NCBI GenBank assembly: GCA_045577905.1
Contig: JAZNJE010000123.1
Span: 1-56,761 of the forward strand
Length of the DNA: 56,761 bases
DNA from: Acutalibacteraceae bacterium
Lineage (GTDB): Bacteria; Bacillota; Clostridia; Oscillospirales; Acutalibacteraceae
Direction of reading: 5' to 3'
The notes below the pieces were generated by a model. The model ran no database searches. It was not told the origin of the DNA and saw nothing but the letters and a program-made list of their open reading frames with translations. A program made the position numbers and the translations under genes. Positions 1,275 through 49,911 of the stretch are shown here, piece after piece. Each line of letters starts with the position of its first letter. The stretch's first letter is position 1.

Positions 1275-1293
1275 ATAATATAGTGCACGAACT

Positions 1294-1626: not shown

Positions 1627-1648
1627 GTTATAATAATGATTGTAGTTA

Positions 1649-1834: not shown

Positions 1835-1855
1835 GTAAAATTAAGGGGGCAGAGG

Positions 1856-2728: not shown

Positions 2729-2759
2729 TTTCCTTTATAAAAAGGGTAATTAGCCCTTT

Positions 2760-3116: not shown

Positions 3117-3790
3117 AATCTGTCCTCCCGTTTAACAAGCGTATAGTTCAGTTCCTTGTCAACAGAGAGCAAAAAGACCTCTGACAAGGAAACCTTATTT
3201 TTTCGTATTATATCTTCAACATCCCGTTTATCTATACCGAGTTCCTTTAAAACGTTCTTCATAATAACACCGTCATTTACGGCAGGAAGAGGCACCAGAG
3301 CAGAACTGCCGCTTTTTCCGACATCCTTTTTTGTGGCTGTTTGAAACTGACTTTTTAAAAGGACATTAAGGTTGCCGTTTGTCTCCATAATTGCATAGGA
3401 AACCTGACTTATATCGTAAACATCTCGGTCACGCAGAAGTTCAACCAAATCGGTAACGGTAATACGCAGACTTTTCATCTCCCTTTGGTCGATAACCCCA
3501 TCCCGAATGATAATTCGGCTGCTTCCCGCAAAAAGACGATGCAAAAGGGGGGATTTAAGTGTTAAAACCGAAAAAACAACCTCAAAAAAAACGAGGGTGG
3601 CTATGGCCGAAATGCCTAAAAACACCGGCTGGCTTATATCTTGGAGAGGAATTGCAACCATCTCTGAAATTAGAAGGGTAACAACAAGTTCGCTCGGTTG
3701 CATCTCGCCGATTTGCCTCTTACCCATAAGCCGAAGGCCCAAAATAACAAAAAAGTAAAGCAGGGTCGTGCGGAGAATAATAGTAAACAT
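3113..3790 (-). CDS. DUF421 (YetF-like) membrane protein
   Basis: N-terminal TM segments followed by a YetF-type C-terminal domain (LRITVTDLVELLR, YAIMETNGNLNV). Confidence 0.7.
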   Translation of the reverse strand: MFTIILRTTLLYFFVILGLRLMGKRQIGEMQPSELVVTLLISEMVAIPLQDISQPVFLGISAIATLVFFEVVFSVLTLKSPLLHRLFAGSSRIIIRDGVIDQREMKSLRITVTDLVELLRDRDVYDISQVSYAIMETNGNLNVLLKSQFQTATKKDVGKSGSSALVPLPAVNDGVIMKNVLKELGIDKRDVEDIIRKNKVSLSEVFLLSVDKELNYTLVKREDRL

Positions 3791-3833
3791 AAAAAAATCA
3801 CCGCAATTAGTATTTGCGGTGATTTTGGTTTTA

Positions 3834-4460
3834 TTAACCTTTTTTAATTTTGTAGGAAAGGCGCATCAGGGTGTCGGTAAAGTGAACATTCTCGACCGAA
3901 ACCTGTGGATGGTTAAGGGTTATATCAAAGTGGGAGAAGTTCCAAAAACCCTCAACGCCAAGTTCGATAAGTTTTGGGCAAAGTTTCTCCGCAGCAGAGG
4001 TCGGAAGGCAAATAAAGGCCGCCTTCGGGGAATGTTCCTTGCAAAAATCTTCAAGGTGTGAAATATCCAGAATGTTTAGCCTCGCAACCTCGGTGCCGAC
4101 AACATCGGGACTCTTGTCAAAGGCGGCAATGAGCGAAAAGCCGAGTTTTGTAAAGTCCATATTGTTTGCGACAACCCTGCCCAAATTACCCACCCCCAGC
4201 ATAATGGCGGGAATTTGCTCATCAATGCCTAAAATTGAGCCGATTTCATCGTAAAGAAGATTGATGCTGTAACCGTAGCCTTGCAGACCAAAACCGCCGA
4301 AACAGTTGAAGTCCTGCCTTACCTGACTTGCGGTTAAATTCATTTTTTTTGCGAGTTCCCCCGAAGAAATACGCTCGATCTTCTGCTTTTTAAGGTTGCC
4401 TAAAAACCTGTAATAGCGCGGAAGCCTCTTAATTACCGATGGAGAAATATATTTACTCAT
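3834..4460 (-). CDS. rex: Redox-sensing transcriptional repressor Rex
   Basis: N-terminus RLPRYYRFL, then ISSGELA..TASQVRQDF and a Rossmann motif GVGNLG. Confidence 0.9.
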   Translation of the reverse strand: MSKYISPSVIKRLPRYYRFLGNLKKQKIERISSGELAKKMNLTASQVRQDFNCFGGFGLQGYGYSINLLYDEIGSILGIDEQIPAIMLGVGNLGRVVANNMDFTKLGFSLIAAFDKSPDVVGTEVARLNILDISHLEDFCKEHSPKAAFICLPTSAAEKLCPKLIELGVEGFWNFSHFDITLNHPQVSVENVHFTDTLMRLSYKIKKG

Positions 4461-4593
4461 AAGTTTTACCTGTCCTACATATTATACATAATGTACCCAA
4501 ACAAAGTTGTGCAACTTTTTAACAATATTCATTATACACAATAAAGATGTTTTTGTAAATAGAAAAAACTATGAAAAATTTTTCAAAAAACTC

Positions 4594-4645
4594 TTGACAA
4601 ATCAGTAATCATTGCTATAATAAAAATAGTAACAATTACTGATTT
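4594..4645 (+). promoter_or_regulatory. perR-rbr promoter with two Fur-family-type palindromes
   Basis: TTGACA (4594..4599), 16 nt spacer, TATAAT (4616..4621). Palindromes are AGTAATcATTGCT (4604..4616) and AGTAACaATTACT (4628..4640). A 10-bp inverted repeat AATCAGTAAT/ATTACTGATT brackets them. Confidence 0.6.
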
Positions 4646-4661
4646 GGGGGGTGCTGCAAAA

Positions 4662-5045
4662 ATGAAGAATTATTCAAGACAGCGTGAAGCGATTTTGAAC
4701 CTGCTTTGCAATACAAAGAGTCATCCGACTGCGGCTTGGATATATGAACAAGTAAGGGAAGAAATTCCCAACATAAGTCTCGGTACCGTTTATCGCAACC
4801 TATCGGGTCTTGCCGAGGAAGGAAGAATTAAAAAACTTGCATTTGGCGATTCGTCGGTACATTTTGACGGCGATGTTTCGGTTCACAGTCATTTTTACTG
4901 TGAACATTGCGGCAACATAGTCGATATTTGGCTTGACCAATCAAATATGTTCGGTAAGATTGAGGCCGAATACGGAGTCAAGCCGAGAAGGGTAGATTTC
5001 AACATTATCGGAAAATGCGGTAATTGTTCAAATAAAGAAAAATAA
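4662..5045 (+). CDS. perR: Fur-family regulator, probably PerR
   Basis: Fur-family length with a CxxC...CxxC C-terminus, located upstream of rubrerythrin. ATG at 4662 follows the RBS GGGGGGTG. Confidence 0.7.
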
Positions 5046-23872: not shown

Positions 23873-24868
23873 TTATGCTTTTTTGATTATCCTTATCTGC
23901 AAACGGTCAATTTTCTTGCCGTAAACACCTGCATAATCATTGTTATCGGTTACCCACGGATAGTAACTGCCGCCGACCCTTGACACTCGGCACTGAACAG
24001 AGTAAGAAGGCTCGCCCAAAAGCCGTACCCTAACACAGTCAATATCCTTGCCGATGATTCCGGCATAATCCTCTCGGTTTTTAACCCAAGGGAGCCACCT
24101 TCCGCCGAGGGTGTGAACCTGATATTCAATATCCCCTTCGGTCAGTTCGGCATATATGCATTGGATATCCTGCCTCGGCAGTCCTGCATAGTCGCTCTCT
24201 CCGTTTACATTGGGAAGCCAACCGCGTTCGGCGGTATATACCTGATAGAGAACGTCCGGCAGAGCGACCGACTGAGGCTTACAACTCTTCTTTTTGAGTC
24301 CGCAACGGGAGATCAAAACCTCGCTGATTGCCTCGGCACACTGATTTGCGTATTTCTCGCTCAAAATAATCGGAACATCTGCCACCGAGTCCATAAAGCC
24401 AAGTTCAAGCAAGACAGCAGGCATATCGGTCTCTCGCAGTTCGTGAAAATCGGCGGTTGCAAGAGGATTGGCACGGTTGCCCCGAAGCCCGGTTTTGCGG
24501 ATAAGTGCGTTATAAAAATCCACCTTCCAATCGGCGGTTACGGTGTCGGTCGAGGTATATGTGTAGGCAACAATACCACCGCCCGAGCCACCGTTGATAC
24601 CGGCATTATGGTGAATTGAAAGATAAAGATGAGCACCCCATTTATTTGCGGTATCGGTTCTCTTTTTAAGGGAAACGTTGACCTTGCCTGTTATGTCATC
24701 AACCCTTATAAGTTCCGCCCCGTCATATTCCGATAAAATGGCTTGTACCTTATCGCAAATACGGGAGTTAAGGCTCCATTCCCTTGTTTCGTTCGGGTCA
24801 ATAGACTTTAAACATCTTTTACCGGCGGAATAAAGTCCGTGACCGGCGCTAAGAGCAATTTTAAACAC
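23873..24868 (-). CDS. Endolysin: N-acetylmuramoyl-L-alanine amidase (Amidase_3) with three C-terminal ChW-like repeats
   Basis: Catalytic-domain motifs SAGHG, SIHHNAG and ELGFMDS. The repeat Y.V....G.WLPWV......AG..G..ID is present three times. GTG start follows AAGGAG. Confidence 0.85.
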   Translation of the reverse strand: MFKIALSAGHGLYSAGKRCLKSIDPNETREWSLNSRICDKVQAILSEYDGAELIRVDDITGKVNVSLKKRTDTANKWGAHLYLSIHHNAGINGGSGGGIVAYTYTSTDTVTADWKVDFYNALIRKTGLRGNRANPLATADFHELRETDMPAVLLELGFMDSVADVPIILSEKYANQCAEAISEVLISRCGLKKKSCKPQSVALPDVLYQVYTAERGWLPNVNGESDYAGLPRQDIQCIYAELTEGDIEYQVHTLGGRWLPWVKNREDYAGIIGKDIDCVRVRLLGEPSYSVQCRVSRVGGSYYPWVTDNNDYAGVYGKKIDRLQIRIIKKA

Positions 24869-24870
24869 AG

Positions 24871-25131
24871 TTATTCTCCTTTTTCAATAAAAATCTTGAA
24901 TGTTTGATGCAGTCCGGTGGATGCGAGACCCGAAACAAGACCGCCGAGCAAAACTTGGGGGGTAAAAACGAATCTGTTTAGCCAAAAAGCAAGAACTAAA
25001 CCTATTGTTCCCATAATAAGCGGAATGTAGCGGTTAATTTTATCCCCGGGCAAAATATTCTTTATAATATATCCTACGCAAAGACATATTCCAATAATGA
25101 TAAACTCAAAATAATCTTTTAAAAATTCCAT
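24871..25131 (-). CDS. Phage holin
   Basis: 86 aa with 2-3 TM helices and a charged C-terminus, immediately upstream of the endolysin. Confidence 0.7.
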   Translation of the reverse strand: MEFLKDYFEFIIIGICLCVGYIIKNILPGDKINRYIPLIMGTIGLVLAFWLNRFVFTPQVLLGGLVSGLASTGLHQTFKIFIEKGE

Positions 25132-25135
25132 AAAT

Positions 25136-25384
25136 CTAACCTCCTTTGTGAAATTCTTCCAAATCTGCTATTCGGTGGTTTACAACCTTGATTTCTTCGT
25201 TTTGGACGGCATCGCTTTTTTCAAGTTCGCCGACCCGTTCAATCACACGGTTGTGCTTTTCAACCTTTTTTTCAAGTTGCTCTATTCGGTAAAGGGCAAG
25301 CCTGTTGGAAACAAGGATGCCACCAAAGGTGCCGAAAAGGGTACCGATAAGAGAAATTATACTGACAGTAAGTGCTTCGCTCAT
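25136..25384 (-). CDS. XhlA-like TM plus coiled-coil lysis accessory protein
   Basis: 82 aa with an N-terminal TM helix and a heptad-rich tail (IEQLEKKVEKHNRVIERVGELEKSDAVQNEEIK). Its position before the holin and amidase matches the PBSX xhlA-xhlB-xlyA arrangement. Confidence 0.5.
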   Translation of the reverse strand: MSEALTVSIISLIGTLFGTFGGILVSNRLALYRIEQLEKKVEKHNRVIERVGELEKSDAVQNEEIKVVNHRIADLEEFHKGG

Positions 25385-25617
25385 AAAAGGGACCTCTCCT
25401 CATTTTTTATTTTCTCAACAAAACTATTGTACTCTGCAAATTCTTCGGGTTTAGTATCCCTCTGCCTGAGTATTGCGAGTTCATCATCAACCGAATAGAC
25501 CTCACGAATGCGGTTTACCACCCTCTGCTCATAAGGAACAGGAGGAATATCTTTCTGCATTTGGGCAATTTCTTCCTCGGTCATATCTCTGTAAATTCCA
25601 TTATCATATATTCTCAT
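25381..25617 (-). CDS. Small tail-fibre-associated protein (XkdW-like)
   Basis: 78 aa with the motif DDELAILRQRD..PEEFAEYN, which is common downstream of fibre genes in Firmicute prophages. The ATG lies 2 nt after the fibre stop. Confidence 0.45.
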   Translation of the reverse strand: MRIYDNGIYRDMTEEEIAQMQKDIPPVPYEQRVVNRIREVYSVDDELAILRQRDTKPEEFAEYNSFVEKIKNEERSLL

Positions 25618-25619
25618 TT

Positions 25620-27008
25620 TTAACGCCCCCAAACCTTGAATTTTGTGCCTGCTGCAAATCCGTTTTCAGATGTGTTAAACTTTAAATCCTGACCCACGCT
25701 CGATATATAATTATAATTCCTTGCATCATTCATAAAGTAAGTCGAAACTGCTTTAAAGTTTGAACCTGCATTTGACGTAGTATAGTAATAAGAAGTTAGG
25801 TTTCCGTCACAAAAAATCTTATTATCAGGTGATATATATAAATCAGCAACAAAGTATAACTTTCCCGTTGATTTTGGACTTGCTTGTGAAGTCCACAACT
25901 GGGATCCTTCAAACGTCAAGCGAATTGATTGCGATGTTATTGTAGTATCACTCGGTATAACTAATGATTCTATATGGATTTCTTTAAAGCGAAGGTTACC
26001 TTTCGGTATTCGTATCTCCGTTACGGCCTCAGTTAAGGTTATATCCTCTATAAGTTCCCATTCTTTTTGAGCAACGGTTGATATTGCCTCGGCAACCGCT
26101 TTACCGCTTTGAGGGTTCAAACTTTCGGGGGAGTAGGTCTTGTCAACCGCCGACTTATTAAGTTTGTCGGAAACATCCTTAACAGCCTTAACACTGTTTA
26201 AGACAGTCGGATTTATGCCGTCCGAGGTAATATCAAGCAAATATTTATTGCCGACGATATATCCAAGTTCGGCAAATTTATCCAAGGAAGTGCTTTTCAA
26301 AAGACCCTGGCAATCGGTAAAAATCAACTCAAAGTTATTGTCAACGAGAGGCTTGATGTTTATAAGAGTATGGATATTTCTGCCGTTTGTTCCGTAATTG
26401 ATATCAAAAGGTGTTATTTCGGTAAGTTCAAGGTTAGCCTTCTCGACCACATCGGGGGTTTTGCCCGGCTCGCCCTTAAATTCTCCCCGTTCAAGACGGC
26501 CTTCAATGTCAAGCACAAGGTTTTGGGTTTCATTTTTGGTTTCGGTTAGTTCTTCTGCCGACACCCCTGCGCTGAGTATTTCGTCACGAATAGACCTTAC
26601 CGATTCTTCCATTGCCGAAAGGCTTTGGTGGGGCTTATCTTCGGCAAGGGGGCTTCGTTTAAGGGAGGTCAGATGTACCTTTACGGGGAAGGACAAAATT
26701 TCGGCATCGCGGTCGGTTATGACAAAAACCACCTCGACCTCATTGCCGAATCGTGTAGCCGAATAGGGCAGAGGGCGGGAAAAAGCACCCGAGGGGGAGG
26801 GGGTAAGATTCTCCGACGGGTTCCAACCGTCAACCGTGTTAAAATCAATGCGGAAAAGAGCAGATTCGCCGAGCATTTTTTTCAAAGAAGGGTCCATAAC
26901 AAAAGTAAAAAGGGTTGCGTTATCCTCGTACTGCATACCGCCCCAAACCCTCGGCGACGGGGTTTCGCGGTCGGCAGAAACGGTAAAAGTGTAGTTTCTA
27001 ACAGCCAT
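25620..27008 (-). CDS. Tail fibre / receptor-binding protein
   Basis: 462 aa with an N-terminal virion-attachment-like domain, a coiled-coil segment, a short collagen-like GEFKGEPGKTPD stretch and a beta-rich C-terminus. It lies between the tail and lysis genes. Confidence 0.55.
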   Translation of the reverse strand: MAVRNYTFTVSADRETPSPRVWGGMQYEDNATLFTFVMDPSLKKMLGESALFRIDFNTVDGWNPSENLTPSPSGAFSRPLPYSATRFGNEVEVVFVITDRDAEILSFPVKVHLTSLKRSPLAEDKPHQSLSAMEESVRSIRDEILSAGVSAEELTETKNETQNLVLDIEGRLERGEFKGEPGKTPDVVEKANLELTEITPFDINYGTNGRNIHTLINIKPLVDNNFELIFTDCQGLLKSTSLDKFAELGYIVGNKYLLDITSDGINPTVLNSVKAVKDVSDKLNKSAVDKTYSPESLNPQSGKAVAEAISTVAQKEWELIEDITLTEAVTEIRIPKGNLRFKEIHIESLVIPSDTTITSQSIRLTFEGSQLWTSQASPKSTGKLYFVADLYISPDNKIFCDGNLTSYYYTTSNAGSNFKAVSTYFMNDARNYNYISSVGQDLKFNTSENGFAAGTKFKVWGR

Positions 27009-27042
27009 ATTTTTTCTCCTTTATAATCATAATGGTCATTAT

Positions 27043-29004
27043 TTAACGATTCCTACGCGGCGTATAAAAAACCGCAAAATCGTTTATTTCAAGTTTTCCT
27101 TTTGCCGAAATCACAAACAGTATGTCTGTAAGAAAGGCGGGAAGGCGGACTTCGTTCGAGCCGTTAAAAATTTCGGTCGTCATAAAGTGCTCCCCGTCGG
27201 CAAAAACCGAAAGTTCGGCATATCCGTCGGCTTTTATGACGGCAAGTACCGAATGGAGGCGAGCCTGTTCGGGATTATCGAAGGGAGATATTGTAACCGA
27301 GGTTTCAATCGGCAGAGAGTCGGCCTCGTCGGGGTCAAGAGTGCCGAGCAAAAAGCGGTCGCAATCATCTTTCAGGGTAAAAACATATATTGAACTGCTC
27401 ATATTGTTGGCAAGGAAAAAAGCATTGCCCCCAACCGAAAGGGCATTAAGCACCTTGACGGGAAGGTCAAAGGAAGGAATAAAGGACAGGTTTTTGCCGA
27501 TTGGAACCGAAAATACAGAGTTTTCGGTAAAAACCAGATAGTTTTCGCCGTCGGCAACGGCAAAACGGGGCTCCCCGTCCACTTCTCCCGCCTTGTCACA
27601 GGAAAGTGAGGAAGAAAGGGAGAAAATCTCGCCCGATTCGGAGGAAAACAGCATTTTGTCCTCTGTTTTGACGAGGGTTCGGGGAAGAAGGGTTGTTCCA
27701 AGACCGGCAACCGATTCCAAGGTAAGTTTGGGTGTAGAAAAGGAGGAAGGAGGCCTTGTTCCCGATAAAACATCGGGGATTGAATAGGGCTCGGAGGAGA
27801 CAACCTTTGCCGAGAAAACCGTGTGAGGTTTAAAAATTAAGAGTTTTCCTTTAACCGAGTCGAGAGCAACCACCGAACCCGACGGCTCGGGCAGAGAAAC
27901 AGAGCAACTTTTCGGAAAATAAAGGGGATTTACGGGGTCTATCCACAAAAGGTCGTGAGGATAGTATCGGCTTCCCGAAAAAACTGTAACCGATTCCGAA
28001 CCGCTTCCCTTAAAGGCGGCAAGGGTGGTTGAACGGCTCATAGAACATACCCTTAAAGCCTCATCGGGGGAAACCGTCTTGTACCGAAAAGTAAGACTGT
28101 TCGGCCGACCTGCGTAGGGTAGAGGGAAGGTGGCGGGACCGTCATAGAAAATGATTTTACCGCTGCTTCTGTCACAGTACATAACCACCTCGGTTTCGTC
28201 AACCGTTTGGGGAGCCGAATGGGTAGAGCCTGCGGCAATTTCCCATACCGTTTTGTCCCCCTCTGCCGAAACATAGGTAGCCCTGATTTTTTCGGAGGGG
28301 TCAGGCAGTCGGGGCAAAATAAAAATATAGGAATGTCGGTCGGCGGTAAAGGTGCAGTCGATAACCGACGTCAGCAAATTTTCGCTTTCAAAGACGGCGG
28401 GGGCGGGGATATAGAAGTCATCTGCCTCGCCATTTACAAATAGGTTGCCTCTGCCGTTTATAAATGCCGTAGGTATATAAAAATCTCCGTCGCTGAGCAA
28501 TCGCCAGGAATCAAGGGTAGATGCAAGTTCGTAAAATCTTACCGTATCGGGTTGGTTGCCGTAACAGATACGGACGGCAAGATATATGCCGGCACCGTAA
28601 AGGGGTTTGCCCGAGTAAAGGAAAAAGGTATCGGGGACGCCAAAGGTGTAACTGTCGGAACGGGAAAAGAGCACCTTACCGAGGGGCATAATTTCGCCGG
28701 TCTCAAAAAAAGCATTAAAGGCATATGAAATATTGCTGTACCCATCCTCCTCGATAACCGCCGCTATTTGCGCCTGACGGTTATTTATGCCGAGGGTAAG
28801 GTCGGTAACCGAAAATGTTGTATAGGAATCTTCGGTCAGGATAGGGTTAAAAATTACGGGAGACGCAGGTAGGCGCATACCCGACCTTGAAACGAGTTTT
28901 CGGTCTTTCGGCACCATATTTACGGCAGACCGAATTTTATCAAAATTACTCTCCGAATTTACCGACACCCTAACAAGATTTCTCTTTTTTGGGTTAATTA
29001 GCAC
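27043..29004 (-). CDS. Large tail structural protein (unknown family)
   Basis: 653 aa, beta-rich. GTG at 29004 lies 6 nt after GGAGGTG and overlaps the upstream stop by 11 nt. The ORF-track start at 29139 would overlap the upstream gene by 145 nt. Confidence 0.5.
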   Translation of the reverse strand: MLINPKKRNLVRVSVNSESNFDKIRSAVNMVPKDRKLVSRSGMRLPASPVIFNPILTEDSYTTFSVTDLTLGINNRQAQIAAVIEEDGYSNISYAFNAFFETGEIMPLGKVLFSRSDSYTFGVPDTFFLYSGKPLYGAGIYLAVRICYGNQPDTVRFYELASTLDSWRLLSDGDFYIPTAFINGRGNLFVNGEADDFYIPAPAVFESENLLTSVIDCTFTADRHSYIFILPRLPDPSEKIRATYVSAEGDKTVWEIAAGSTHSAPQTVDETEVVMYCDRSSGKIIFYDGPATFPLPYAGRPNSLTFRYKTVSPDEALRVCSMSRSTTLAAFKGSGSESVTVFSGSRYYPHDLLWIDPVNPLYFPKSCSVSLPEPSGSVVALDSVKGKLLIFKPHTVFSAKVVSSEPYSIPDVLSGTRPPSSFSTPKLTLESVAGLGTTLLPRTLVKTEDKMLFSSESGEIFSLSSSLSCDKAGEVDGEPRFAVADGENYLVFTENSVFSVPIGKNLSFIPSFDLPVKVLNALSVGGNAFFLANNMSSSIYVFTLKDDCDRFLLGTLDPDEADSLPIETSVTISPFDNPEQARLHSVLAVIKADGYAELSVFADGEHFMTTEIFNGSNEVRLPAFLTDILFVISAKGKLEINDFAVFYTPRRNR

Positions 29005-29332
29005 AGGGCTCACCTCCGAAAAGAGTGTTGCGGACGGTGTCGGTGCAGGAGAGGTACTTCTTTTTAAGATTGTTATAAACGTCGTTAAACTCAGAGGCCC
29101 CTGCGTCATCCCCCAACAATATACTGATGAGCATTGCAATACCGATTTCGAGGAGTATTTTTCCTCCCCTTTGAAGGGTGGGAATCGGGTCGGTCAAAGA
29201 GCAAACCGACTCGGCACCTATATCACTCAGTATGGTGTTTGTGAAGCCGACCGCCGCCTTTTTAATAAGTTCCGAAGGTGCACCACCTCCGCAGAGGGCA
29301 TAGGCTTCGGTTAAAATATCAATTACCTTCAT
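28994..29332 (-). CDS. Head-tail connector/adaptor-size protein (unknown family)
   Basis: 112-aa helical protein overlapping the portal stop, in the position expected for a head-completion or adaptor protein. Confidence 0.4.
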   Translation of the reverse strand: MKVIDILTEAYALCGGGAPSELIKKAAVGFTNTILSDIGAESVCSLTDPIPTLQRGGKILLEIGIAMLISILLGDDAGASEFNDVYNNLKKKYLSCTDTVRNTLFGGEPCAN

Positions 29333-30935
29333 TTTTAATTTCCTCCATCTGATTTTTTAGGTCCTCAATATCGGGAATGAGGGAAGAAGGCAGTCGCTTT
29401 ACATACTGCAAGGCTGAAATTGCCCCCTTTTCGTAAAGAGAAGTCAGCAGTTTTGCAGAATCTTCTTCACTGCGTGTGACTCCTTCGGACAAGACAACCG
29501 AAACCGACAAAAGAAGGTCACGGTACCGTGCAGAATCGAAGGGGAAATACCACTCTCCGTTTTCGTCGCTTATTTTGAGACCTCTTTTTCCGTACATTGT
29601 CACAAAAAACTCTGCCCAAATAAGGGCAATTTCCTCTATAAAACGGTTGAAGCGGTTTTTGAGGAGAACAAGGGGTTCGGTAGCCGCTGCACGCAGGGCG
29701 ATGATTGCGGATGTATTGTCGGTTGACATGTCACCCAGAGCAGCCATTGTAGCACCGCTTTGGGAGAGGGTATTTACAATAAGTTGAGATACCGATTGAT
29801 TAAAGCCGGAAGAAAAATCAGGCGGATTTATGTATTTTACCGCAGATGAAATTTCCTCCGCATTACCCCAAACACGGATTATTTGTCCGGGGTCGTTGGT
29901 AATGTCCTCGGGGACGAGTTCTCCGTTTACTACCATAAGGGGCATACCGCTTGACACCGCCGACCAAACCGATGCCGTAATCATACGGTTTATTGCAATC
30001 TGATTGGGTATTAAGTAGGTAATTTCGCTGTCGCCGTAAATATTGTTGTCACGGGGCTCCCAAACAAACCCCGCAAGGGGATACAGCCTGACCCCGATGT
30101 CCCACTCTTCACGGACCGTAAAGTCTCGGGTTACCTTAACCGCAAAAATGTGCATACTGCCGTCAGGAAGCCTCTTTTTATAAAGACGGGTCAAAAGAAG
30201 AATCTTTTCTGCCGACTCCTCAGGAGTTGGCTCAGGCAGAGAGGTCTGTCCGAAGAGCCTTGCCTCATAAAGAAGGTCGGCAAGAGGCTTTTTCTCGGCA
30301 AGAATAATAAAGGGTTGAGATTGAAGACGGGTGCAGGTGGGGTCGCCGAAATATACGTTTTCGGCTCGGACAACCTCCGAAACAATGTCTCCGAGTATTG
30401 GTTTTCCACCGATTTTGTCTGCATAAAGCCCCGTTCTTACCGACGGGTCAAAATAGGTGTAGATATATCCGCTTCCCGAAATATATGCGTTTTTAAGGGC
30501 AGAGTCCAAAAGTGCGGGCAGTCCCACCCTTTTGGAGACGGTGTCTCGGTAGGAGTTAAGTGCCGAGGTCATAAGGGCAATTTCATTCTTGCTTTGTATC
30601 GGAGCATAGAGAGAATCTCCCCGCTTTGAAAGAGCCTTTCTTTCTTCCTTGACGGCACGGTCGGTATCCTTGGTGTGGGGGACACCCTCTGCGGTGTAGC
30701 AAACCTTAATCTTCGATGAGACAAGTTGACTCATTTTGAAGTCGCCTATTCTCTTAATAACATTGTGTCTGACCAAAGGGCGGTCGGAAGGAGAGGAAAC
30801 ACCGCTCCACTGGTCGCCCGCAAAAAAGCGTTCGTTAAATTTTATCTGCTCATAAAGTCCTCTGTTTCCTACCGAGGACTTAAATTGCCGAATACGGTTA
30901 TATTCTTCAAAGATTTTTTCGCGGCTTATCTGCAT
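29319..30935 (-). CDS. Portal protein
   Basis: 538 aa with a portal-typical N-terminal motif (NERFFAGDQW), appropriate size and genomic context. The ATG at 30935 lies after a terminator hairpin and the RBS-like GAAAGGA. Confidence 0.7.
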   Translation of the reverse strand: MQISREKIFEEYNRIRQFKSSVGNRGLYEQIKFNERFFAGDQWSGVSSPSDRPLVRHNVIKRIGDFKMSQLVSSKIKVCYTAEGVPHTKDTDRAVKEERKALSKRGDSLYAPIQSKNEIALMTSALNSYRDTVSKRVGLPALLDSALKNAYISGSGYIYTYFDPSVRTGLYADKIGGKPILGDIVSEVVRAENVYFGDPTCTRLQSQPFIILAEKKPLADLLYEARLFGQTSLPEPTPEESAEKILLLTRLYKKRLPDGSMHIFAVKVTRDFTVREEWDIGVRLYPLAGFVWEPRDNNIYGDSEITYLIPNQIAINRMITASVWSAVSSGMPLMVVNGELVPEDITNDPGQIIRVWGNAEEISSAVKYINPPDFSSGFNQSVSQLIVNTLSQSGATMAALGDMSTDNTSAIIALRAAATEPLVLLKNRFNRFIEEIALIWAEFFVTMYGKRGLKISDENGEWYFPFDSARYRDLLLSVSVVLSEGVTRSEEDSAKLLTSLYEKGAISALQYVKRLPSSLIPDIEDLKNQMEEIKNEGN

Positions 30936-30951
30936 AAAATCATCCTTTCTT

Positions 30952-30981
30952 AAAAAAGGGACGGAGGTTGCCCTCCGTCCC
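30952..30981 (-). terminator. Intrinsic terminator-like hairpin between the capsid and portal genes
   Basis: A 10-bp GC-rich stem GGGACGGAGG/CCTCCGTCCC is followed by TTTTTT on the minus strand. Confidence 0.6.
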
Positions 30982-30988
30982 AAAGTGA

Positions 30989-32170
30989 TTACGCTACCGT
31001 AACAGTTGCAACCTCGGAATTAACCGAGTTGGTACCGTCGGCGGTAACCTTACAGAAGAAGTAATATTCTCCTGCGGGAAGGTCGTCAGGAATGTTCATA
31101 GATGCGGCAGTTTCTCCTATAAGACGGGCAGCGCCCCTACCGTTTTTGATGTCAGCCTGATACCATTGGTATGCAAGTTCAACACCTGCTTCGGAGGTTG
31201 CGGCAACCGAGAGAGACTCGTTTATTGCACCCTCGGTTACGGTAATGTCGGAGGGAGAAGACGTAATGGTAAGGGGAGAAGAGAAGAAGCCCCAAACCGT
31301 ATCGGTTGCCGAAGCCTTTACAAATACGTCGTAGTAAATACGGTAATCGAACTTGTAGGCATCGGCGCCGGTGTTCTGTTCAGGTGTGAAAACCCTGAGT
31401 TTTTCGGTTTTCTTTACAAGATGAGCAGCGGTTTTGGGAAGAAGGAGCATATAAATTCCGCGGGCGCCGTCGGCAGGAACAAATCCGCCGACCGCATCGT
31501 TCTTGAAGTTATAGGCGGTCTTCATTCTCTCGCTTACAACGGGAATAATGGCAACACCGTTAATCGACTTAACTTTGAGGTTGATTTCGCCCTGCTTAAA
31601 GTCAGAAACGGTAACAAAGCGTGTAATCTCGGCAGAGGACATAAGTGCGGCATAAGCAACAGAGTCCATAAAGCAAACGAGGTCACGGTCATAGCCTGCA
31701 ACCGACTGAACCTGATTTACAAGGGTAGAAAAAGCCTCGAAAGGTCTTTCAAGGTCGCCTGCAATTGCGTTGCCCTTTGAAAGAGCAAGGTTGCCGAGTT
31801 TTGATATAACATAGGCATCACATTCGGGAACAACCTTTGTTTTAACATATTCGCCGAGCACCTTTCCTGCGAGATTTGCAATGCCGGTCTCGTCCATATC
31901 TTCACGGTCGATGGTAAGCGAACGGGCACGGTCCATTGTCATTGTGTAGGAACTTCCTTTTACCGAAACTGAGCCGCTTGCAAAACCGTTAGCACGGTCA
32001 TAATCGGCTAGTCCGTCAAAGTCAACGTCGGGAATGATAACGGTTTTTGCACCGACAAAACGGGTGCGAAGAATGTTGTCGGCAAGGAATGCGGTGGCAC
32101 TCTTTGCCTCGAAAACACGGTCAAGTGCGCCGGAATAGTTTTCGGCGGCAGCAATAGAATTGATAGACAT
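30989..32170 (-). CDS. Major capsid protein with a C-terminal Ig-like domain
   Basis: 393 aa, immediately after the scaffold gene. The last ~95 aa resemble a bacterial Ig-like domain (ITVTEG....YQWY....AGEYYFFCKVT). Confidence 0.7.
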   Translation of the reverse strand: MSINSIAAAENYSGALDRVFEAKSATAFLADNILRTRFVGAKTVIIPDVDFDGLADYDRANGFASGSVSVKGSSYTMTMDRARSLTIDREDMDETGIANLAGKVLGEYVKTKVVPECDAYVISKLGNLALSKGNAIAGDLERPFEAFSTLVNQVQSVAGYDRDLVCFMDSVAYAALMSSAEITRFVTVSDFKQGEINLKVKSINGVAIIPVVSERMKTAYNFKNDAVGGFVPADGARGIYMLLLPKTAAHLVKKTEKLRVFTPEQNTGADAYKFDYRIYYDVFVKASATDTVWGFFSSPLTITSSPSDITVTEGAINESLSVAATSEAGVELAYQWYQADIKNGRGAARLIGETAASMNIPDDLPAGEYYFFCKVTADGTNSVNSEVATVTVA

Positions 32171-32196
32171 AAATTTTTTCTCCTTAAATAGTTTTT

Positions 32197-32703
32197 TCAG
32201 TTACCCCAAACGCCCTTTAAAAATTCTGCGGCGGTGGGGTCCTGTCGGTCATCTGCCGACAGAGAGCCGGTGGTAGAGGCGGCGGTAAAACATTGATTCT
32301 CGGTTTCTTCTGCCGCCGCCTTTGCCTTTTTATACTCGTAGAGCAGGTACTCAAAAACCAGTCCTGTACCATTATTTTTTGCGGCTGTTTTTACCTCCTC
32401 GGGGAGCATATCGGGTGAGGAAATTTCGGGGAAATGAATACGTAATTGACCAAAATTATCGGGGCTTTCAGCCTGCGCGCGCAATTTTTCGTAGTCCTCA
32501 TAAATCTGGTCAAACTTCATTCCCTTTTGTGCCAGACTGACGGCAGTTTCTCGGTCAAGGTCCAAAATTTCTTTGTTAAACTTGATTTTCATAAAACTGT
32601 CGCAGGGGGAAGGGAGGTCGGGTGTGGTTGCCTCGTCCTTCTCATTTAAAATCTCCTCCTCGGTCTGTGGTTGGACCGAATCATCTTTTAATTTTTCTTC
32701 CAT
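32197..32703 (-). CDS. Scaffolding protein
   Basis: Acidic, helical, 168 aa, with the IKFNKEI..L...A..LAQKGM motif, located upstream of the capsid gene. Confidence 0.6.
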   Translation of the reverse strand: MEEKLKDDSVQPQTEEEILNEKDEATTPDLPSPCDSFMKIKFNKEILDLDRETAVSLAQKGMKFDQIYEDYEKLRAQAESPDNFGQLRIHFPEISSPDMLPEEVKTAAKNNGTGLVFEYLLYEYKKAKAAAEETENQCFTAASTTGSLSADDRQDPTAAEFLKGVWGN

Positions 32704-32873
32704 TTAGAAATTTCCTCCGTTAATTCAAAAATTTTTTCGCTTCCGTCAAAGGACAGGAAGTCATAAAGGCCGACTGCTTCGCCCTTCCTTCGGGTGGCAG
32801 GGGGCTTTTTTGTCCTTCTTTTTCCTAAATTCCAACCGATAATAAGAAAGACAAGTGCAACAAGTGCGGTCAT
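32688..32873 (-). CDS. Small membrane peptide (one TM followed by a basic stretch)
   Basis: The ATG at 32873 overlaps the TerL stop (ATGA). Function is unknown. Confidence 0.4.
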   Translation of the reverse strand: MTALVALVFLIIGWNLGKRRTKKPPATRRKGEAVGLYDFLSFDGSEKIFELTEEISKWKKN

Positions 32874-34117
32874 ACACTCCACCCCCCTTTGTTTCCGTAA
32901 AGCCTCCTCGACGGCTCTCCGCCGTTTTTAACATCGTAAAAGGCATAGCGGAGAGCATCCATAAGGTGGTTGTCGGAGTCCATCGGGGTGTTGGGAAGAC
33001 TCTTGTTCCAACGGTATGAGGAAAGTTCTTCCAGAGTGTTCTTGCATTTTGGGTCAACAATAATTCGGTATTCGCTTATGTTCATAATTCCGTTTATAAT
33101 ACTGTCTTTGCCCTTGACCGACGGCATAAGACGGGTCAGACCGAGCCGTCTTAAATCCTCGTTCGTTTTGGGCTCGGCAGAGTCGGCACGTATCCGTTCC
33201 TTGCCGTAGCCCTTTTGGATAATCAGTCGGGCAATGTCGGAATTGAGCATCTTTTTCTGACAAAACTCATCAAAAATATAAATGATTTTTTCCTCACGGT
33301 TGACCTTGATTGCAATAAAGGCGGTCGGGTCGGTGGTGTAGCCGTAATCGAGGCCGAAAAATGCCTGCCAGTTTCCCTTGGCGGTGTCGGGAACACCCGT
33401 AATCCAGTTTTCATAAACCAGACCTTCGGCAATTCCCCATTCGCCAAGCCCCGCAACAGCATATCGACGGGGATGCTCGGTTTTGAGCCGTTCAAAAACC
33501 GCACGGTCGGTTTGGTCCAAAAATTCGTTTACCAGATAGTTGGTCGAAAAAACCGTACAGTCGGGGGAAGGATTGTCAAAGAAACGGGCTTTCAGCCAAT
33601 GCTTTTCGCTCCAAGGGTTAAAGGTCAAGGTTGTCTGCTTGAAAAGGGGAGGGGGAAGACTTCCCCTCGGCACCGATAAATCAAGTTTTTCAAAGTCGGA
33701 AAGTTCGGCGATTTCATAGGCTTCTTCAACCCAAACAAAATTGAGAAAACCTTTCTCGACGGTGGTTGATGCCAACTTCAAAACGTCGTCAAACCCTCTG
33801 AAAAGTATTTTTTGACCGGTGGGAATATAGGTCATTTCAAGCGGAGCAACACAGTTTTTAAAAAGGTGAGAAACCCCGAGTTTTTCCTGCGCCCATTTAA
33901 GTTGGGCAAAGGTCGAGTCTCGGTGGGTGTTCATAACGGCTCGGACTACAAGAATATTGCTTTGGGGATACCGTATGAGGCGGTAAATAAGATTGAGCGC
34001 AGTTGTCGCAGATTTTTTGGAGCCCTTTCCGCCCTTTAAAACCCTGTAACGGGTCTTACAGTTCCAAAACTCATCGTATCCGTCTCCGACCTTCTCTTTA
34101 AGACTTACCGATGTCAT
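32870..34117 (-). CDS. Terminase large subunit (PBSX family)
   Basis: Walker A GGKGSKKS, Walker B-like FVWVEEA, and nuclease motifs GLDYG, DSAEP and DNHLMDALRYA. The start is uncertain (ATG at 34117 or GTG at 34132). Confidence 0.9.
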   Translation of the reverse strand: MTSVSLKEKVGDGYDEFWNCKTRYRVLKGGKGSKKSATTALNLIYRLIRYPQSNILVVRAVMNTHRDSTFAQLKWAQEKLGVSHLFKNCVAPLEMTYIPTGQKILFRGFDDVLKLASTTVEKGFLNFVWVEEAYEIAELSDFEKLDLSVPRGSLPPPLFKQTTLTFNPWSEKHWLKARFFDNPSPDCTVFSTNYLVNEFLDQTDRAVFERLKTEHPRRYAVAGLGEWGIAEGLVYENWITGVPDTAKGNWQAFFGLDYGYTTDPTAFIAIKVNREEKIIYIFDEFCQKKMLNSDIARLIIQKGYGKERIRADSAEPKTNEDLRRLGLTRLMPSVKGKDSIINGIMNISEYRIIVDPKCKNTLEELSSYRWNKSLPNTPMDSDNHLMDALRYAFYDVKNGGEPSRRLYGNKGGWSV

Positions 34118-34352
34118 CGACAAGGGTAACACCTCCCGAAACCTCTCCGAGTCCGATAATTCCGAGCAGTTCCTTTATTGCGGAAAGTTCTCCTCCCGCC
34201 GCCTTTTTATAGAGTGCGGCGGCAATTACCGTCATACGGGTCGGCTTTTTCACCTTAATTTCCATCTCCGAGAGCCGTTCATCTTCTTCTGCTGTCGCAG
34301 GCAGACGTAACAGACGGAGCAGTTCATCGGATAACTGTTTTTTGCTTTTCAA
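34098..34352 (-). CDS. Short terminase small-subunit-like protein
   Basis: 84 aa with a segment resembling the TerS helix (MTVIAAALYKKAAGGELSAIKELL). TTG start lies 7 nt after AGGAGGTG, and the gene overlaps TerL. Confidence 0.4.
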   Translation of the reverse strand: MKSKKQLSDELLRLLRLPATAEEDERLSEMEIKVKKPTRMTVIAAALYKKAAGGELSAIKELLGIIGLGEVSGGVTLVDDIGKS

Positions 34353-35799: not shown

Positions 35800-35884
35800 G
35801 CAGGGGTGCTGAAATTGGCATACAGGCTGGCCTCAGACACCAGTGGAGTCATCCGTGCGGGTTCAAGTCCCGTCCCCTGCACCA
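35800..35884 (+). tRNA. tRNA-Leu (anticodon CAG), long variable arm, CCA encoded
   Basis: Manual cloverleaf: GCAGGGG acceptor, anticodon loop CTCAGAC, variable arm TGGAGTCATCCGT, T arm GCGGG-TTCAAGT-CCCGT. Confidence 0.85.
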
Positions 35885-35927
35885 AAAAAGAAGTAACTTT
35901 TGTTTAATAAAAGTTACTTCTTTTTTT
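35885..35927 (+). terminator. Intrinsic terminator after tRNA-Leu
   Basis: A 12-bp stem GAAGTAACTTTT/AAAAGTTACTTC followed by T7. Confidence 0.8.
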
Positions 35928-35929
35928 AT

Positions 35930-36110
35930 CCAAGCCGCAGGCTTGGTATATCATCACGCTTTAACGTGTATATCATCGCCGTAGGCGTATATCATCACCG
36001 AAGGTGCATCTTCCTGCGGCTTGATGAGATACAACACTTCGTGTTGGTGATATACAATGCTTCGCATTGATGATATGCAACGGCAAGCCGTTGATTTGTT
36101 TGCCGGAGTA
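35930..36110 (+). repeat. Mini-hairpin array B: TATATCATC three times, then its reverse complement GATGATATA-like three to four times, each word separated by a 10-16 nt hairpin
   Basis: Hairpins are CCAAGCC-GCA-GGCTTGG, CACG-CTTTAA-CGTG, CGCC-GTA-GGCG, CACC-GAA-GGTG, AACAC-TTC-GTGTT, CAATGC-TTC-GCATTG and CAACGG-CAAG-CCGTTG. In addition, 35931..35941 is complementary to 36013..36023. Confidence 0.75.
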
Positions 36111-36135
36111 TGATATAATACACTTGAAAGGAGTG
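36111..36135 (+). promoter_or_regulatory. Extended -10 promoter TGATATAAT and RBS of the four-helix-bundle gene
   Basis: TGATATAAT at 36111..36119 is the same element as at 698..706 on the minus strand. RBS is AAAGGAG. Confidence 0.5.
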
Positions 36136-36140
36136 TATAT

Positions 36141-36488
36141 ATGTCGAAAAACTATTTACTAACATATTCTGAGCAACTTGCAACAGAGATCGAATTGCTT
36201 TGTCAAAATATAAAAGCCTCTTCCAACACTCTTTTCCAAATCCGTAAGAGTTCAAGCAGTGCATATGCAAATATTCGTGAGGCTAATTACGGACAAAGCA
36301 AAGCGGATATGCTTTCAAAATTTGAAATTGCACTCAAGGAATGCAGTGAAACAGAGGGTTGGTTGCAGTTGTTATATAATACAAAGGGCATCAATGAAAC
36401 GACCTACAAAAGCCACAGAAATCTTTGCGGTCGCATCAGGCGACTGTTGATCGCCTCTTGTAAAACATTAAAGGAGAATGTAAAATGA
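36141..36488 (+). CDS. Four-helix-bundle protein (23S rRNA intervening-sequence protein / Avd-like family)
   Basis: 115-aa helical protein with the motifs KFEIALKECSETEGWLQLL and LIASCKT.KEN, both shared with the paralog at 323..676. Confidence 0.8.
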   Translation: MSKNYLLTYSEQLATEIELLCQNIKASSNTLFQIRKSSSSAYANIREANYGQSKADMLSKFEIALKECSETEGWLQLLYNTKGINETTYKSHRNLCGRIRRLLIASCKTLKENVK

Positions 36489-36808
36489 AGAACAGACCGA
36501 TCGTCACAGGTATCATAGCTGTTGCTTCTCCAATACCGCTGGTAATTTTTTCTGTAATATGGAGTTGGGTGTGGTTTTTCGGTATAGGTATGGGATTGCT
36601 AAACTACGACACTGTTCCTCAATGGATACTTATAGTTTCGCTGCTACCCTTGCTTATTAGTCCGATTTTTGGTTTGTTGGGCACAATTCATGGTATAGTA
36701 AAAATCAAAACGAGGAAAGCGTGGTTGGGAATTTTTTTGTCTGTAATAGGATTGTTTGAAAATTTCATCCTGATTTACGGAATGCATTATCTTGGTAGCA
36801 GATTTTAA
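36485..36808 (+). CDS. Small 3-4 TM membrane protein, translationally coupled (ATGA) to the four-helix-bundle gene
   Basis: 107-aa hydrophobic ORF. A decayed homolog lies at 190..326. Confidence 0.6.
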   Translation: MKNRPIVTGIIAVASPIPLVIFSVIWSWVWFFGIGMGLLNYDTVPQWILIVSLLPLLISPIFGLLGTIHGIVKIKTRKAWLGIFLSVIGLFENFILIYGMHYLGSRF

Positions 36809-36874
36809 TTGCGCACCTATTTGCTTTTCTTTGCCTCATTTACGCACCGTTATACCGCTCTTTTGCAAAGCATT

Positions 36875-36924
36875 CAAACCCGAACCTTTTACCAATCGGT
36901 GAAACGTTCGGGTTTGTTGTTTTC
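36875..36924 (+). terminator. Intrinsic terminator after the cassette
   Basis: Stem CAAACCCGAAC/GTTCGGGTTTG followed by a T-rich tract. Confidence 0.65.
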
Positions 36925-37047
36925 TTAAAAGATGTTAAATAAGCCTTTGTTTGTCGCAGTACGGAGTTAGTCGCTCTGTCGCTGATTATTTGTGCAGAAT
37001 GAACGATACAGAGCAATAAATTTGATTTAAGTTTTACATACGAAGCA

Positions 37048-49660: not shown

Positions 49661-49911
49661 AAGAAAACGACAAGTTTCGATAGAACCTTGTCTTTTTCAG
49701 TTATATTCGCCTTGCGGCGAGTTAGGCACAATATCACTTAAAACTGTAGGGGTTCAAACACATAGGTTGACTTTTTGAAAGGTATCGAATCTACACACCC
49801 TTTCCAAATAAAAATGAGCCTACCGTAAGGTTTCGGCTTGTTTTTATTTTGTGATAACTATGAGGGATGAGAAGCAGGAGTAGTAGCGAATACTATAGTT
49901 TTATAAAAAAG

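Follow-up and report, generated by a model that had tools for sequence, protein, structure and literature searches.

The 56,761-nucleotide stretch of Acutalibacteraceae DNA analysed here (the window) carries, behind a tRNA-Leu(CAG) gene, an array of short hairpins that alternate with copies of a conserved word, first in direct and then in inverted orientation, upstream of a gene for a four-helix-bundle (4HB) protein. From the comparison of related sequences, it can be regarded as firmly established that this array is a selected, dyad-organised set of mini-hairpin/word modules, which heads a very abundant family of tRNA-linked cassettes. An earlier reading of the same DNA (the original prediction) had described the array by itself; its cassette context and a second cassette at the left end of the window are added here.

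Architecture of the array

The array is composed of a leading palindrome (hp0), three modules of word and hairpin, a short variable spacer, a truncated inverted copy of hp0 (the centre) and three inverted modules (Table 1). All hairpins, loops and words listed in the original prediction were found in place and far beyond chance: the word TATATCATC is present three times without mismatch (starts at 35947, 35969 and 35988) and its reverse complement four times with one mismatch each (36023–36031, 36046–36054, 36069–36077 and 36109–36117). The hairpins of the first half are CACG-CTTTAA-CGTG, CGCC-GTA-GGCG and CACC-GAA-GGTG, those of the second half CAACAC-TTC-GTGTTG, CAATGC-TTC-GCATTG and CAACGG-CAAG-CCGTTG; read on the plus strand, the first half thus has the loops GCA (hp0), CTTTAA, GTA and GAA, and the second TTC, TTC and CAAG. 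When up to one mismatch is allowed, the word has 24 matches in the window, as compared to 9.0 ± 3.0 expected (0 of 100 shuffles reached 24); seven of the 24 fall within 171 nt, and clustering of the word is confined to the cassette. As single-stranded DNA (ssDNA) the 170-nt stretch folds with −42.1 kcal/mol versus −20.4 ± 2.8 kcal/mol for shuffles (z = −7.7; other strand z = −6.9), and as RNA its two strands give z = −5.6 and −5.7, again relative to shuffles.

The last inverted word, which had been taken for the −10 of the downstream gene, does overlap the TATAAT −10 of a promoter predicted by consensus scan (overlap at 36110–36117), and the predicted −35 overlaps the 3′ arm of the last hairpin. 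The position of this promoter is kept in related loci, and in one metatranscriptome run (X39) contig coverage starts at ~36145. A coding role of the 56-aa open reading frame (ORF) that runs across the array (35900–36070) could be rejected: changes in hairpin length between loci are not multiples of three.

Covariation, loop rule and strand flip

Spacers were read on the strand on which the word is TATATCAT and were picked by their flanking words only, so that the test for covariation is not circular. In the 166 distinct hairpins obtained, stem positions comprise 978 Watson–Crick pairs, 34 G·T, 15 A·C and 36 other combinations, and stem pairing amounts to 90%, compared to 64% after the 3′ arms had been swapped between hairpins of equal length. 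For the 31 distinct hairpins of 15 nt, 98.9% of the cells are paired as opposed to 72.6 ± 2.0% in shuffles (0 of 500 reach this value); both sides change in five of the six pairs, 50 compensatory cells are seen where 12.6 are expected, and sliding the partner by 1–3 columns leaves 25–44% paired.

Of the triloops, when read on the word strand, 52 are GNA and 4 TNC (p = 1e-11), with C-G closing 50 of the 52 GNA loops. Tetraloops of the type C-GNNA-G number 18, most of which are not GNRA (GTCA, GTTA, GACA), and G·T exceeds A·C on this strand by 34 to 15 (p = 0.009). The G-N(N)-A loop and the 5′-C·G-3′ closing pair are those of the DNA mini-hairpin motif: the stability of d(GCGNAGC)/d(GCGNNAGC) needs the closing C·G pair together with a sheared G·A pair (PMC13037366, PMC3201870). 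The favoured strand is plus in the first half and minus in the second, with the flip at the array centre. Since the asymmetry of loops and wobble pairs changes strand there, one RNA cannot satisfy both halves, and the hairpin signal would most simply be one at the level of DNA rather than that of a single structured RNA. The original prediction had left the choice between an ssDNA or RNA structural element and a multi-site protein-binding array; the DNA-hairpin and protein-site readings are now favoured, whilst a single structured RNA is disfavoured by the strand flip.

The arms and loop of hp0 change together with the centre in at least four variant classes: CCAAGCC-GCA-GGCTTGG is found with the centre CCTGCGGCTTG, CCATTGC-GAAA-GCAATGG with CTTTCGCAATG, CCAAGTC-GCA-GACTTGG with TCTGCGACTTG and CCAAGCC-GACA-GGCTTGG with CTGTCGGCTTG. 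Two explanations would fit this pattern: the first half may be closed by long-range pairing, or a single protein site may be present in a second, inverted copy. The closed domain that had been proposed from the pairing of 35931–35941 with 36013–36023 is hence only partly borne out: the two segments are 100% complementary and covary, but an inverted hp0 duplicate explains the covariation equally well.

Two side observations concern hp0. Its junction with the T-run of the preceding terminator always reads TTATCCA (TTATCCAAG or TTATCCATT), both in the window (35923–35938) and in all related arrays; compared with the DnaA box consensus TTATCCACA, the junction fits 7 of 9 positions, and this may be coincidence. 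In addition, a palindromic element of ~45 nt (TAGGGGTTCCCCGAAGCGAGC…GCTTTGGGGGTTCCC) is inserted in the hp0 loop at locus L020 (2205–2260), at L071 (upstream of the array) and, in run X3, at window positions 35935–35940; it looks like a nested hairpin element that targets the hairpin loop.

Minimum free energy folds of the array as ssDNA or RNA pair words with inverted words in a 'ladder'. This fold is unsupported: at its variable position the innermost word pair is non-complementary in 33 of 48 distinct arrays, and the halves often contain unequal numbers of modules. As the words exhibit no pairing covariation, the ladder predicted from energies is a by-product of the inverted symmetry, and it appears more likely that the words are read as sequence. 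The same 33 arrays carry the C/G variant (TATCTCAT or ATGAGATA) in one, and only one, of their two innermost words, the opposite of what is expected from base pairing (Fisher p = 0.03).

Relatives of the array

A protein scan of species-representative genomes gave at least 409 relatives, of which 79 loci were kept; all 79 are from uncultured Oscillospiraceae, Acutalibacteraceae or 'Eubacteriales' gut metagenome-assembled genomes (MAGs), mostly of ruminant origin. Wherever the upstream sequence suffices, these loci exhibit a near-universal plan: terminator, TATCC-hp0, about three YATMTCATC words with hairpins, a short variable spacer, the truncated inverted hp0, about three GATGAKATR words with hairpins, and the promoter. 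Conservation of the word/hairpin architecture beyond this genome, on which the original prediction had made its interest depend, is clear: compensatory stems are found in more than 100 related arrays (Oscillospiraceae/Acutalibacteraceae gut MAGs), and the word of 8–9 nt with its CATC core (consensus YATATCATC) is near-invariant across many species. Each half contains 2 to 5 modules, and identical hairpin types recur in shuffled order at other loci.

A scan independent of the protein, in which metagenome contigs were searched for three words at array spacing, returned 120 stretches. Thirteen are true arrays with palindromic spacers and stems of 5–10 bp, human-gut contigs (L122, L139) being among them; the other 107 are unrelated tandem repeats with non-palindromic spacers, which constitute a built-in negative control.

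Several loci contain altered arrays. In L072 (1–630) a first half without hp0 is joined to a second half plus −35, and in L139 unrelated sequence and a non-4HB gene come after a first half. L003 and L008 (1027–2500) harbour an ORF of 333 aa on the opposite strand, between the array and the last hairpin with its promoter; the array of L024 is also rearranged.

The cassette family

The array heads a unit of ~1 kb, which in the window spans ~35885–36866. It follows either a tRNA 3′ end or the preceding cassette's tail and consists, in order, of terminator, array, promoter, often a PF05635 gene, cargo that overlaps this gene by ATGA, and a tail of 60 nt. The link to tRNA genes is general beyond this genome: wherever upstream sequence is available, the terminator before hp0 starts right after the CCA of a same-strand tRNA gene, with at least 20 anticodons represented. 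Alternatively, the left neighbour is another cassette's tail (L012, L068, L073, L049, L080, L178), and one metagenome contig joins 36869 to another terminator and then to 35918. Homologous terminators with a gtctacc loop and covarying stems follow different tRNAs as well as the tails of other cassettes, and hence the terminator belongs to the cassette unit. BLAST searches with the tails recovered 29 of them, each with a terminator behind it. Between loci behind the same tRNA pair, similarity extends from the tRNA through the 4HB gene (74–89% DNA identity) and returns in the tail only, the flanks being unalignable.

In most of the 79 loci the stop codon of the 4HB gene overlaps the second ORF in an ATGA, and this cargo differs completely between loci: lipoproteins, membrane proteins, GNAT acetyltransferases, nucleotidyltransferases, NUDIX proteins, EEP nucleases and ICMT-like methyltransferases were found, together with immunity-like proteins (WapI-like, DUF4279, DUF4275, DUF6678). 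For cargo to be swapped, homologous exchange via the conserved head and tail would suffice. No recombinase or integrase is present among the genes called within ±10 kb of two cassette loci or in the smaller flanks of clade-2 cassettes (see below), no reverse transcriptase or transposase was seen in cassettes or examined neighbourhoods, and none of the window ORFs of at least 150 aa contains a YxDD motif. Searches for phage and plasmid relatives gave one match at an IMG/VR contig end, no plasmid match and one weak phage match to the protein-coding part. An empty site was not identified at this locus, where the nearest relatives of the flanking GDSL gene are at most 66% identical and not syntenic; in run X29, a lone tRNA 3′ end is joined to 36866, which is ambiguous as the sequence from 36866 onward is multi-copy.

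The abundance of the family is evident from sequencing depth: in three DNA metagenomes the word reaches depths of 760–4800 and the 4HB gene 10–290, compared to 6 for single-copy cargo in run X1. Many contigs end inside arrays; in practical terms, the arrays break metagenome assemblies.

The four-helix-bundle protein and its clades

The adjacent gene does encode a 4HB protein, as had been proposed. Its product scores against PF05635 with an E-value of 8e-17 (61.8 bits, cut-off 33.8) and against TIGR02436 with 6e-19 (68.3 bits, cut-off 24), and matches PDB 2RLD with an E-value of 5.5e-16 (4e-35 with a profile). An AlphaFold2 model comprises four helices (pLDDT 92.7), and Foldseek with this model retrieved 2RLD (TM 0.85) and 2GSC, followed by bAvd (4DWL, TM 0.80) and Avd chains of 8UB7 and related entries, all of the ribonucleoprotein (RNP) of a diversity-generating retroelement (DGR). 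Both 2RLD and 2GSC are pentameric S23p-family proteins; PADLOC gave no meaningful defence-system match for the 4HB protein. PF05635 has been equated with the Avd family (PMC10053308). In the DGR RNP, five Avd protomers grip one stem-loop, the foot bases of which flip into crevices between protomers, and for 207 of 278 DGRs such a stem-loop is predicted, with a stable tetraloop as its cap (bioRxiv 10.1101/2023.10.23.563531). DGR retrohoming in turn requires a DNA hairpin downstream of the variable repeat (VR), with free stem sequence and a strand-specific GRNA loop (PMC3240598). Broken 4HB genes (ORFs of 41, 74 and 37 aa) were observed behind intact arrays in L049, L063 and L070.

The second cassette of the window, located behind a tRNA-Glu gene (Table 1), encodes a 4HB protein of a different clade (clade 2), which is 46% identical to the first and also has thousands of close relatives; main and clade-2 cassettes therefore coexist in one window. 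Clade-2 cassettes have the terminator loop and the tail in common with the main family but exhibit the word GTGATGC/GCATCAC instead, in an array of four direct words with TNC-loop hairpins that is followed by inverted words without hairpins. Thus, in the two other 4HB clades the terminator loop is shared whilst the words differ (GCATCAC, ACATCGTT): the third clade (L178) contains AACGATGT four times with TTC-loop hairpins in a layout of terminator and array, with only a tail remnant readable. A main-clade member with 74% identity retains the main word, and a CATC core is common to the words of all clades on the mini-hairpin strand. As two words occur in one genome with shared cassette ends, whatever reads the word would be clade-specific and distinct from the shared ends; the 4HB protein is the only clade-specific product and hence the candidate reader.

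Proposed function of the array

We tentatively propose, as a reading that is quite possible though short of probable, that the array acts in cis as a DNA platform of hairpins and words, to which the Avd-like protein binds beside the cassette promoter. In each module, a short GC-rich palindrome would extrude as an unusually stable DNA mini-hairpin (C-GNA-G or C-GNNA-G) next to a CATC-core word; some three modules on the plus strand face some three on the minus strand, bracketed by hp0 and its truncated inverted copy. During transient unwinding, be it through replication or through supercoiling upstream of the promoter, the modules could be read as a hairpin plus single-stranded word. The reader would be the cassette family's own Avd-like 4HB pentamer, acting in cis or in trans, much as bAvd holds a stem-loop whose foot bases are flipped out. 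Abutting the −35, the nucleoprotein array so formed might set expression of the 4HB-cargo operon and insulate the operon from the tRNA gene. Extrusion of the hairpins in vivo, the 4HB protein as binder and control of the promoter are what we infer; co-variation of the word with the 4HB clade, the basic pI of 9.2, the Avd fold and the overlap of the last hairpin with the −35 would argue for the 4HB protein as reader.

A number of observations weigh against this proposal. In the sample collected independently of the 4HB protein, only ~3 of 8 readable arrays have a 4HB gene behind them, and in DNA metagenomes the array is 7–58 times commoner than this 4HB gene; most arrays would therefore be read in trans or by something else. 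The association with 4HB genes that the original prediction had suggested as a check is thus frequent beyond this genome, but not obligatory. Stems of 4–7 bp do not self-extrude from relaxed duplex DNA. The co-variation of word and clade is based on three clades only, and many loci exhibit a second promoter type ~45 nt further downstream, so that overlap with the −35 is not universal. Finally, the documented specific ligand of bAvd is RNA and not DNA (bioRxiv 10.1101/2023.10.23.563531).

Alternative explanations

An unlikely, yet serious, alternative is that of a recombination or transposition site, in which the modules, as folded DNA, would be recognised by a recombinase or HUH/Y1 enzyme that acts in trans and by which cassettes are moved or shuffled, in the style of integron attC sites, of repetitive extragenic palindromes (REP) with their associated tyrosine transposases (RAYT), or of IS200/IS605 ends. 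The distribution of the cassettes speaks for mobility: without a recombinase of their own they are found behind at least 20 tRNAs and in tandem, the same cargo cassette occurs behind different tRNAs, and cassette heads that are 74–89% identical lie in unalignable flanks. Furthermore, the 4HB protein has thousands of relatives at 87–99% identity, as compared to 66% for the closest outside relative of the adjacent housekeeping GDSL protein. The shuffled order of hairpin modules and the palindromic insert in the hp0 loop also fit this explanation; free sequence, conserved structure and strand specificity are hallmarks of attC and REP, and the CATC beside each hairpin recalls the GTAG of REP. However, the cassette boundaries are at the terminator and the tail rather than within the array, and no half-array remains at the distal end of cassettes. 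Clade-2 cassettes share terminator and tail but not the word, and thus the presumed mobility ends are not the array. There are also no attC cores, no recombinase is found within ±10 kb of two loci or in the smaller flanks examined, and plain homologous recombination between head and tail could explain the exchange of cargo.

A related and rather improbable view is that the array and the Avd-like protein form the targeting or landing module of a cassette-capture system, a functional integron analogue in Clostridia. Mini-hairpin/word sites behind tRNA genes would then direct the insertion or exchange of promoter-bearing cassettes, and as part of the mechanism the 4HB pentamer might recruit a reverse transcriptase or HUH enzyme that acts in trans. 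To our knowledge, integrons have rarely been reported in Clostridia.

Action of the two halves as RNA elements is in our judgement decidedly improbable: the first half would be carried on tRNA read-through and the second on a divergent antisense transcript ending at the bidirectional terminator, with the 4HB protein bound as in the case of bAvd. The tolerance for G·T (G·U) on the word strand, the RNA fold (z = −5.6), the bidirectional terminator itself and the array-matching contigs in some runs labelled RNA are in agreement with this, as is the fact that the known ligand of bAvd is an RNA stem-loop (bioRxiv 10.1101/2023.10.23.563531). In contrast, the loops obey the GNA/GNNA rule of DNA and not the GNRA/UNCG rule of RNA, a strong terminator precedes the array, no convincing leftward promoter was found, and clade-2 arrays are arranged the opposite way round relative to the promoter. 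In an Rfam scan only the tRNA passes the gathering threshold, with Gut-1 (RF01706) as the best RNA family for the array at 19–20 bits versus a gathering threshold of 50. The transcript check used Logan contigs only: the depth of the array relative to the gene is the same in the 'RNA' runs X29, X25 and X33 as in DNA runs and is thus uninformative, apart from X39, the only run with more gene than array, where the array is at least 20-fold under-represented relative to DNA.

We consider it very unlikely that the halves are paired single-strand initiation signals, signals for priming or for exclusion of single-strand-binding protein (SSB), placed on opposite strands as in G4 oric or the ssiA/ssiB pair of RSF1010. 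Equally little credence is given to the role they would then play, which is to aid complementary-strand synthesis or restart, either during replication behind a busy tRNA gene or after uptake of ssDNA. The mini-hairpins of the two halves are indeed on opposite strands, and one hp0 variant is GCGAAAGC itself; C-GNA-G and GCGAAAGC mini-hairpins are known from the G4/St-1 origins, RSF1010 ssiA and N4 promoters, where they resist SSB and nucleases (PMC13037366). The cassette, however, lacks replicon functions, no plasmid or phage relatives were found beyond the matches given above, and the clade-specific words would be left unexplained.

A selfish or neutral modular repeat of the BOX type or of the type of miniature inverted-repeat transposable elements, kept uniform through gene conversion among copies and devoid of a function of its own, is scarcely credible: it would account for the very high copy number (word depth 760–4800 versus 6 for cargo in X1), the range of 2 to 5 modules per half and the rearranged or truncated arrays of L072, L139 and L003, but compensatory stems, strand-specific loops with C-G closing, a near-invariant word and three-way covariation of hp0 and centre are unexpected without selection.

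Features of the window

Table 1. Positions of the array, its cassette and related units in the 56,761-nt window.
Feature	Position	Strand	Details
tRNA-Leu(CAG)	35800–35884	+	ARAGORN; Rfam tRNA 46 bits; cassette begins right after 3′ CCA
Terminator (T_unit)	35884–35926		bidirectional intrinsic terminator (A-run, 21-nt arms at 35884–35904 and 35906–35926, T-run); left end of cassette
hp0 palindrome	35930–35946	+	CCAAGCC-GCA-GGCTTGG; C-GCA-G loop
First half	35947–36006	+ (mini-hairpin, GNA strand)	three modules of word TATATCAT(C) and variable hairpin
Variable spacer	36007–36012	+	CATCTT
Centre	36013–36023	+	CCTGCGGCTTG; truncated inverted copy of hp0 5′ arm and loop
Second half	36024–36093	− (mini-hairpin, GNA strand)	three inverted modules with words ATGAGATA, GTGATATA, ATGATATG
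Predicted cassette promoter	36091–36119	+	TTGATT-17-TG-n-TATAAT, sigma-70 type; consensus scan only, 10/12 matches
4HB gene	36141–36488	+	PF05635/TIGR02436 (Avd/S23p); 115 aa, pI 9.2
Cargo ORF	36485–36808	+	107-aa membrane protein; start overlaps 4HB stop (ATGA)
Cassette tail	36809–36866	+	two ~28-nt direct repeats (…GCGCACCTATTTGCTTTTCTTTGCC… / …ACGCACCGTTATACCGCTCTTTTGC); right end
Gene-less 'solo' unit	36875–36982	+	terminator 36875–36925, tail-like motif 36942–36982 (…GTTAGTCGCTCTGTCGC)
Second cassette, behind tRNA-Glu	132–906	−	T_unit 906–862, clade-2 4HB gene 676–323, promoter, internally deleted cargo, tail

The solo unit sits between the cassette and nadA and is multi-copy in metagenomes; in run X1 its depth is 211–351, compared with ~6 for the cargo. 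At the left end of the window (1–1117, minus strand), a gene-less, hairpin-rich unit 'X' (1117 to ~924) lies behind tRNA-Met and tRNA-Glu and is followed by a 17-nt duplicate of the tRNA-Glu 3′ end (923–907), the clade-2 cassette and X again (131–1, cut by the end of the window). The duplicated tRNA-Glu end resembles an att-type core repeat, and the right end of X (GCGCACCGTA) agrees with the box that comes first in the cassette tails. X also contains (window 990–1060, plus strand, repeated at 1–70) a tRNA-like T-arm/acceptor motif, ACGGGTTCAAATCCCGTCGCTAAG, without a matching 5′ half, where neither ARAGORN nor Rfam calls a gene.

Downstream of tRNA-Arg(CCG), at 49661–49760, a terminator is followed by TATATTCGCCTTGCGGCGAGTTAGG, which resembles the CTCGCC…GGCGAG hairpins beside words in L048 and L071; judged by this resemblance, the stretch may be a decayed cassette head. 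Upstream of the cassette, large minus-strand ORFs occupy 23873–34352 and end at a large terminase of the PBSX family (32870–34132), the one ORF of the block that was annotated, with a possible small-terminase ORF at 34098–34352. This block, which ends ~1.5 kb before tRNA-Leu, may be a defective prophage or an element resembling a gene transfer agent.

Implications

If the interpretation given here is true, Oscillospiraceae and Acutalibacteraceae, which are common in the animal-gut samples examined, carry tens of small, self-expressed, tRNA-anchored cassettes per genome, on a platform that is shared across species and with cargo resembling the accessory and immunity gene pool of integrons. With the DNA hairpin plus word, a ligand open to testing would become available for stand-alone PF05635/Avd-like proteins, a large family for which no function is known apart from DGRs and 23S rRNA intervening sequences. 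The d(C-GNA-G) mini-hairpin, so far known to us from a few phage and plasmid origins, would be under selection at hundreds of chromosomal sites and thereby offer a natural system for studies of extrusion in vivo.

Relation to known systems

A full-text search of the literature returned nothing that describes tRNA-linked PF05635 cassettes or this array, and the cassette family is apparently undescribed. The nearest known systems, which are REP and the bacterial interspersed mosaic elements (BIME) built from them, attC sites and integrons, the DGR hairpin with Avd, and the single-strand initiation (ssi) signals, share one or two properties with the array and fail the defining ones. The original prediction was therefore right to set it apart from CRISPR arrays, REP/BIME and attC sites, given its repeat geometry, the absence of an attC core and palindromes that are neither conserved in sequence nor dispersed. 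CRISPR arrays contain direct repeats of ~23–47 nt and unique, non-palindromic spacers of similar length, whereas the repeat here measures 8–9 nt, its recurring spacers of 11–22 nt are palindromic and half of the array is inverted. An inverton between the 11-nt inverted repeats that flank the first half was also rejected: the related arrays examined all have the same orientation, and no strand-changing joints were present in 8 metagenome/metatranscriptome runs, for which contigs only were used, so that rare forms could be missed.

Iteron and centromere arrays, such as parC of plasmid R1, consist of phased short direct repeats at a promoter that are bound by a small protein encoded downstream, and have no selected hairpin spacers; BOX elements of pneumococcus are modular with variable copy number, their modules being conserved in sequence and not tied to tRNA genes. 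The array is similar to these in possessing two sets of short repeats beside a promoter and variable modules, but differs in its selected hairpins, inverted set and link to tRNA genes.

As with integrons, the cassettes combine small and diverse accessory cargo (acetyltransferases, nucleotidyltransferases, immunity-like proteins, lipoproteins) in tandem at a fixed anchor, and as with attC, the array is a cis site in which structure is conserved over sequence in a strand-specific manner. Unlike integron cassettes, however, those described here have their own promoter and terminator, the structured site is upstream of the genes, the anchor is a tRNA 3′ end and there is no intI. An attC site can be excluded, as there is no R″/R′ core (RYYYAAC … GTTRRRY) in 35881–36140 and the array is upstream of a promoter-bearing gene, and in contrast to attC the cassette boundaries lie outside the structured site. 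An integron-like boundary at the array centre is excluded as well: similarity runs from the tRNA through the 4HB stop and resumes in the tail, and there is no half-array after the last cassette.

REP and BIME share with the array their extragenic palindromes, a motif at the hairpin foot, alternating orientation and a position at the 3′ ends of transcription units, and folded ssDNA is the presumed acting form in both cases. The difference lies in what is conserved: REP stems are conserved within a genome, whilst here the stems vary freely (166 distinct stems) and the word is conserved (YATATCATC). REPs are dispersed over hundreds of sites, whereas the modules occur only in ordered arrays at cassette heads, with word matches in the window clustered at the cassette. 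The REP motif is GTAG and comes with RAYT; here it is a CATC-core word of 8–9 nt, and no RAYT was identified in the 56.7-kb window or in the short loci.

The ssi signals of G4 oric and RSF1010 ssiA/ssiB resemble the array in their C-GNA-G or GCGAAAGC mini-hairpins, paired on opposite strands (PMC13037366). These signals belong to phage and plasmid origins with dedicated primases, in contrast to the array, which is chromosomal, multi-copy, interleaved with words and without a link to a replicon.

DGRs are similar in protein family and fold (PF05635; 4DWL, TM 0.80), and in phage BPP-1 the target hairpin lies a short distance upstream of avd, its stem being free in sequence and its G..A loop strand-specific (PMC3240598). 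In contrast to DGRs, the window contains no YxDD ORF and the neighbourhoods no reverse transcriptase Pfam; no template repeat (TR) or VR turned up, although no separate search was made for these. The hairpins are many rather than one, with stems of 4–10 bp. A DGR target has a GC-rich hairpin stem and, on its sense strand, a GRNA loop of 4 nt; the loops here follow G-N(N)-A with C-G closing, but are mostly of 3 nt, multiple and found on both strands. The likeness to DGRs and Avd is thus one of resemblance and not of membership.

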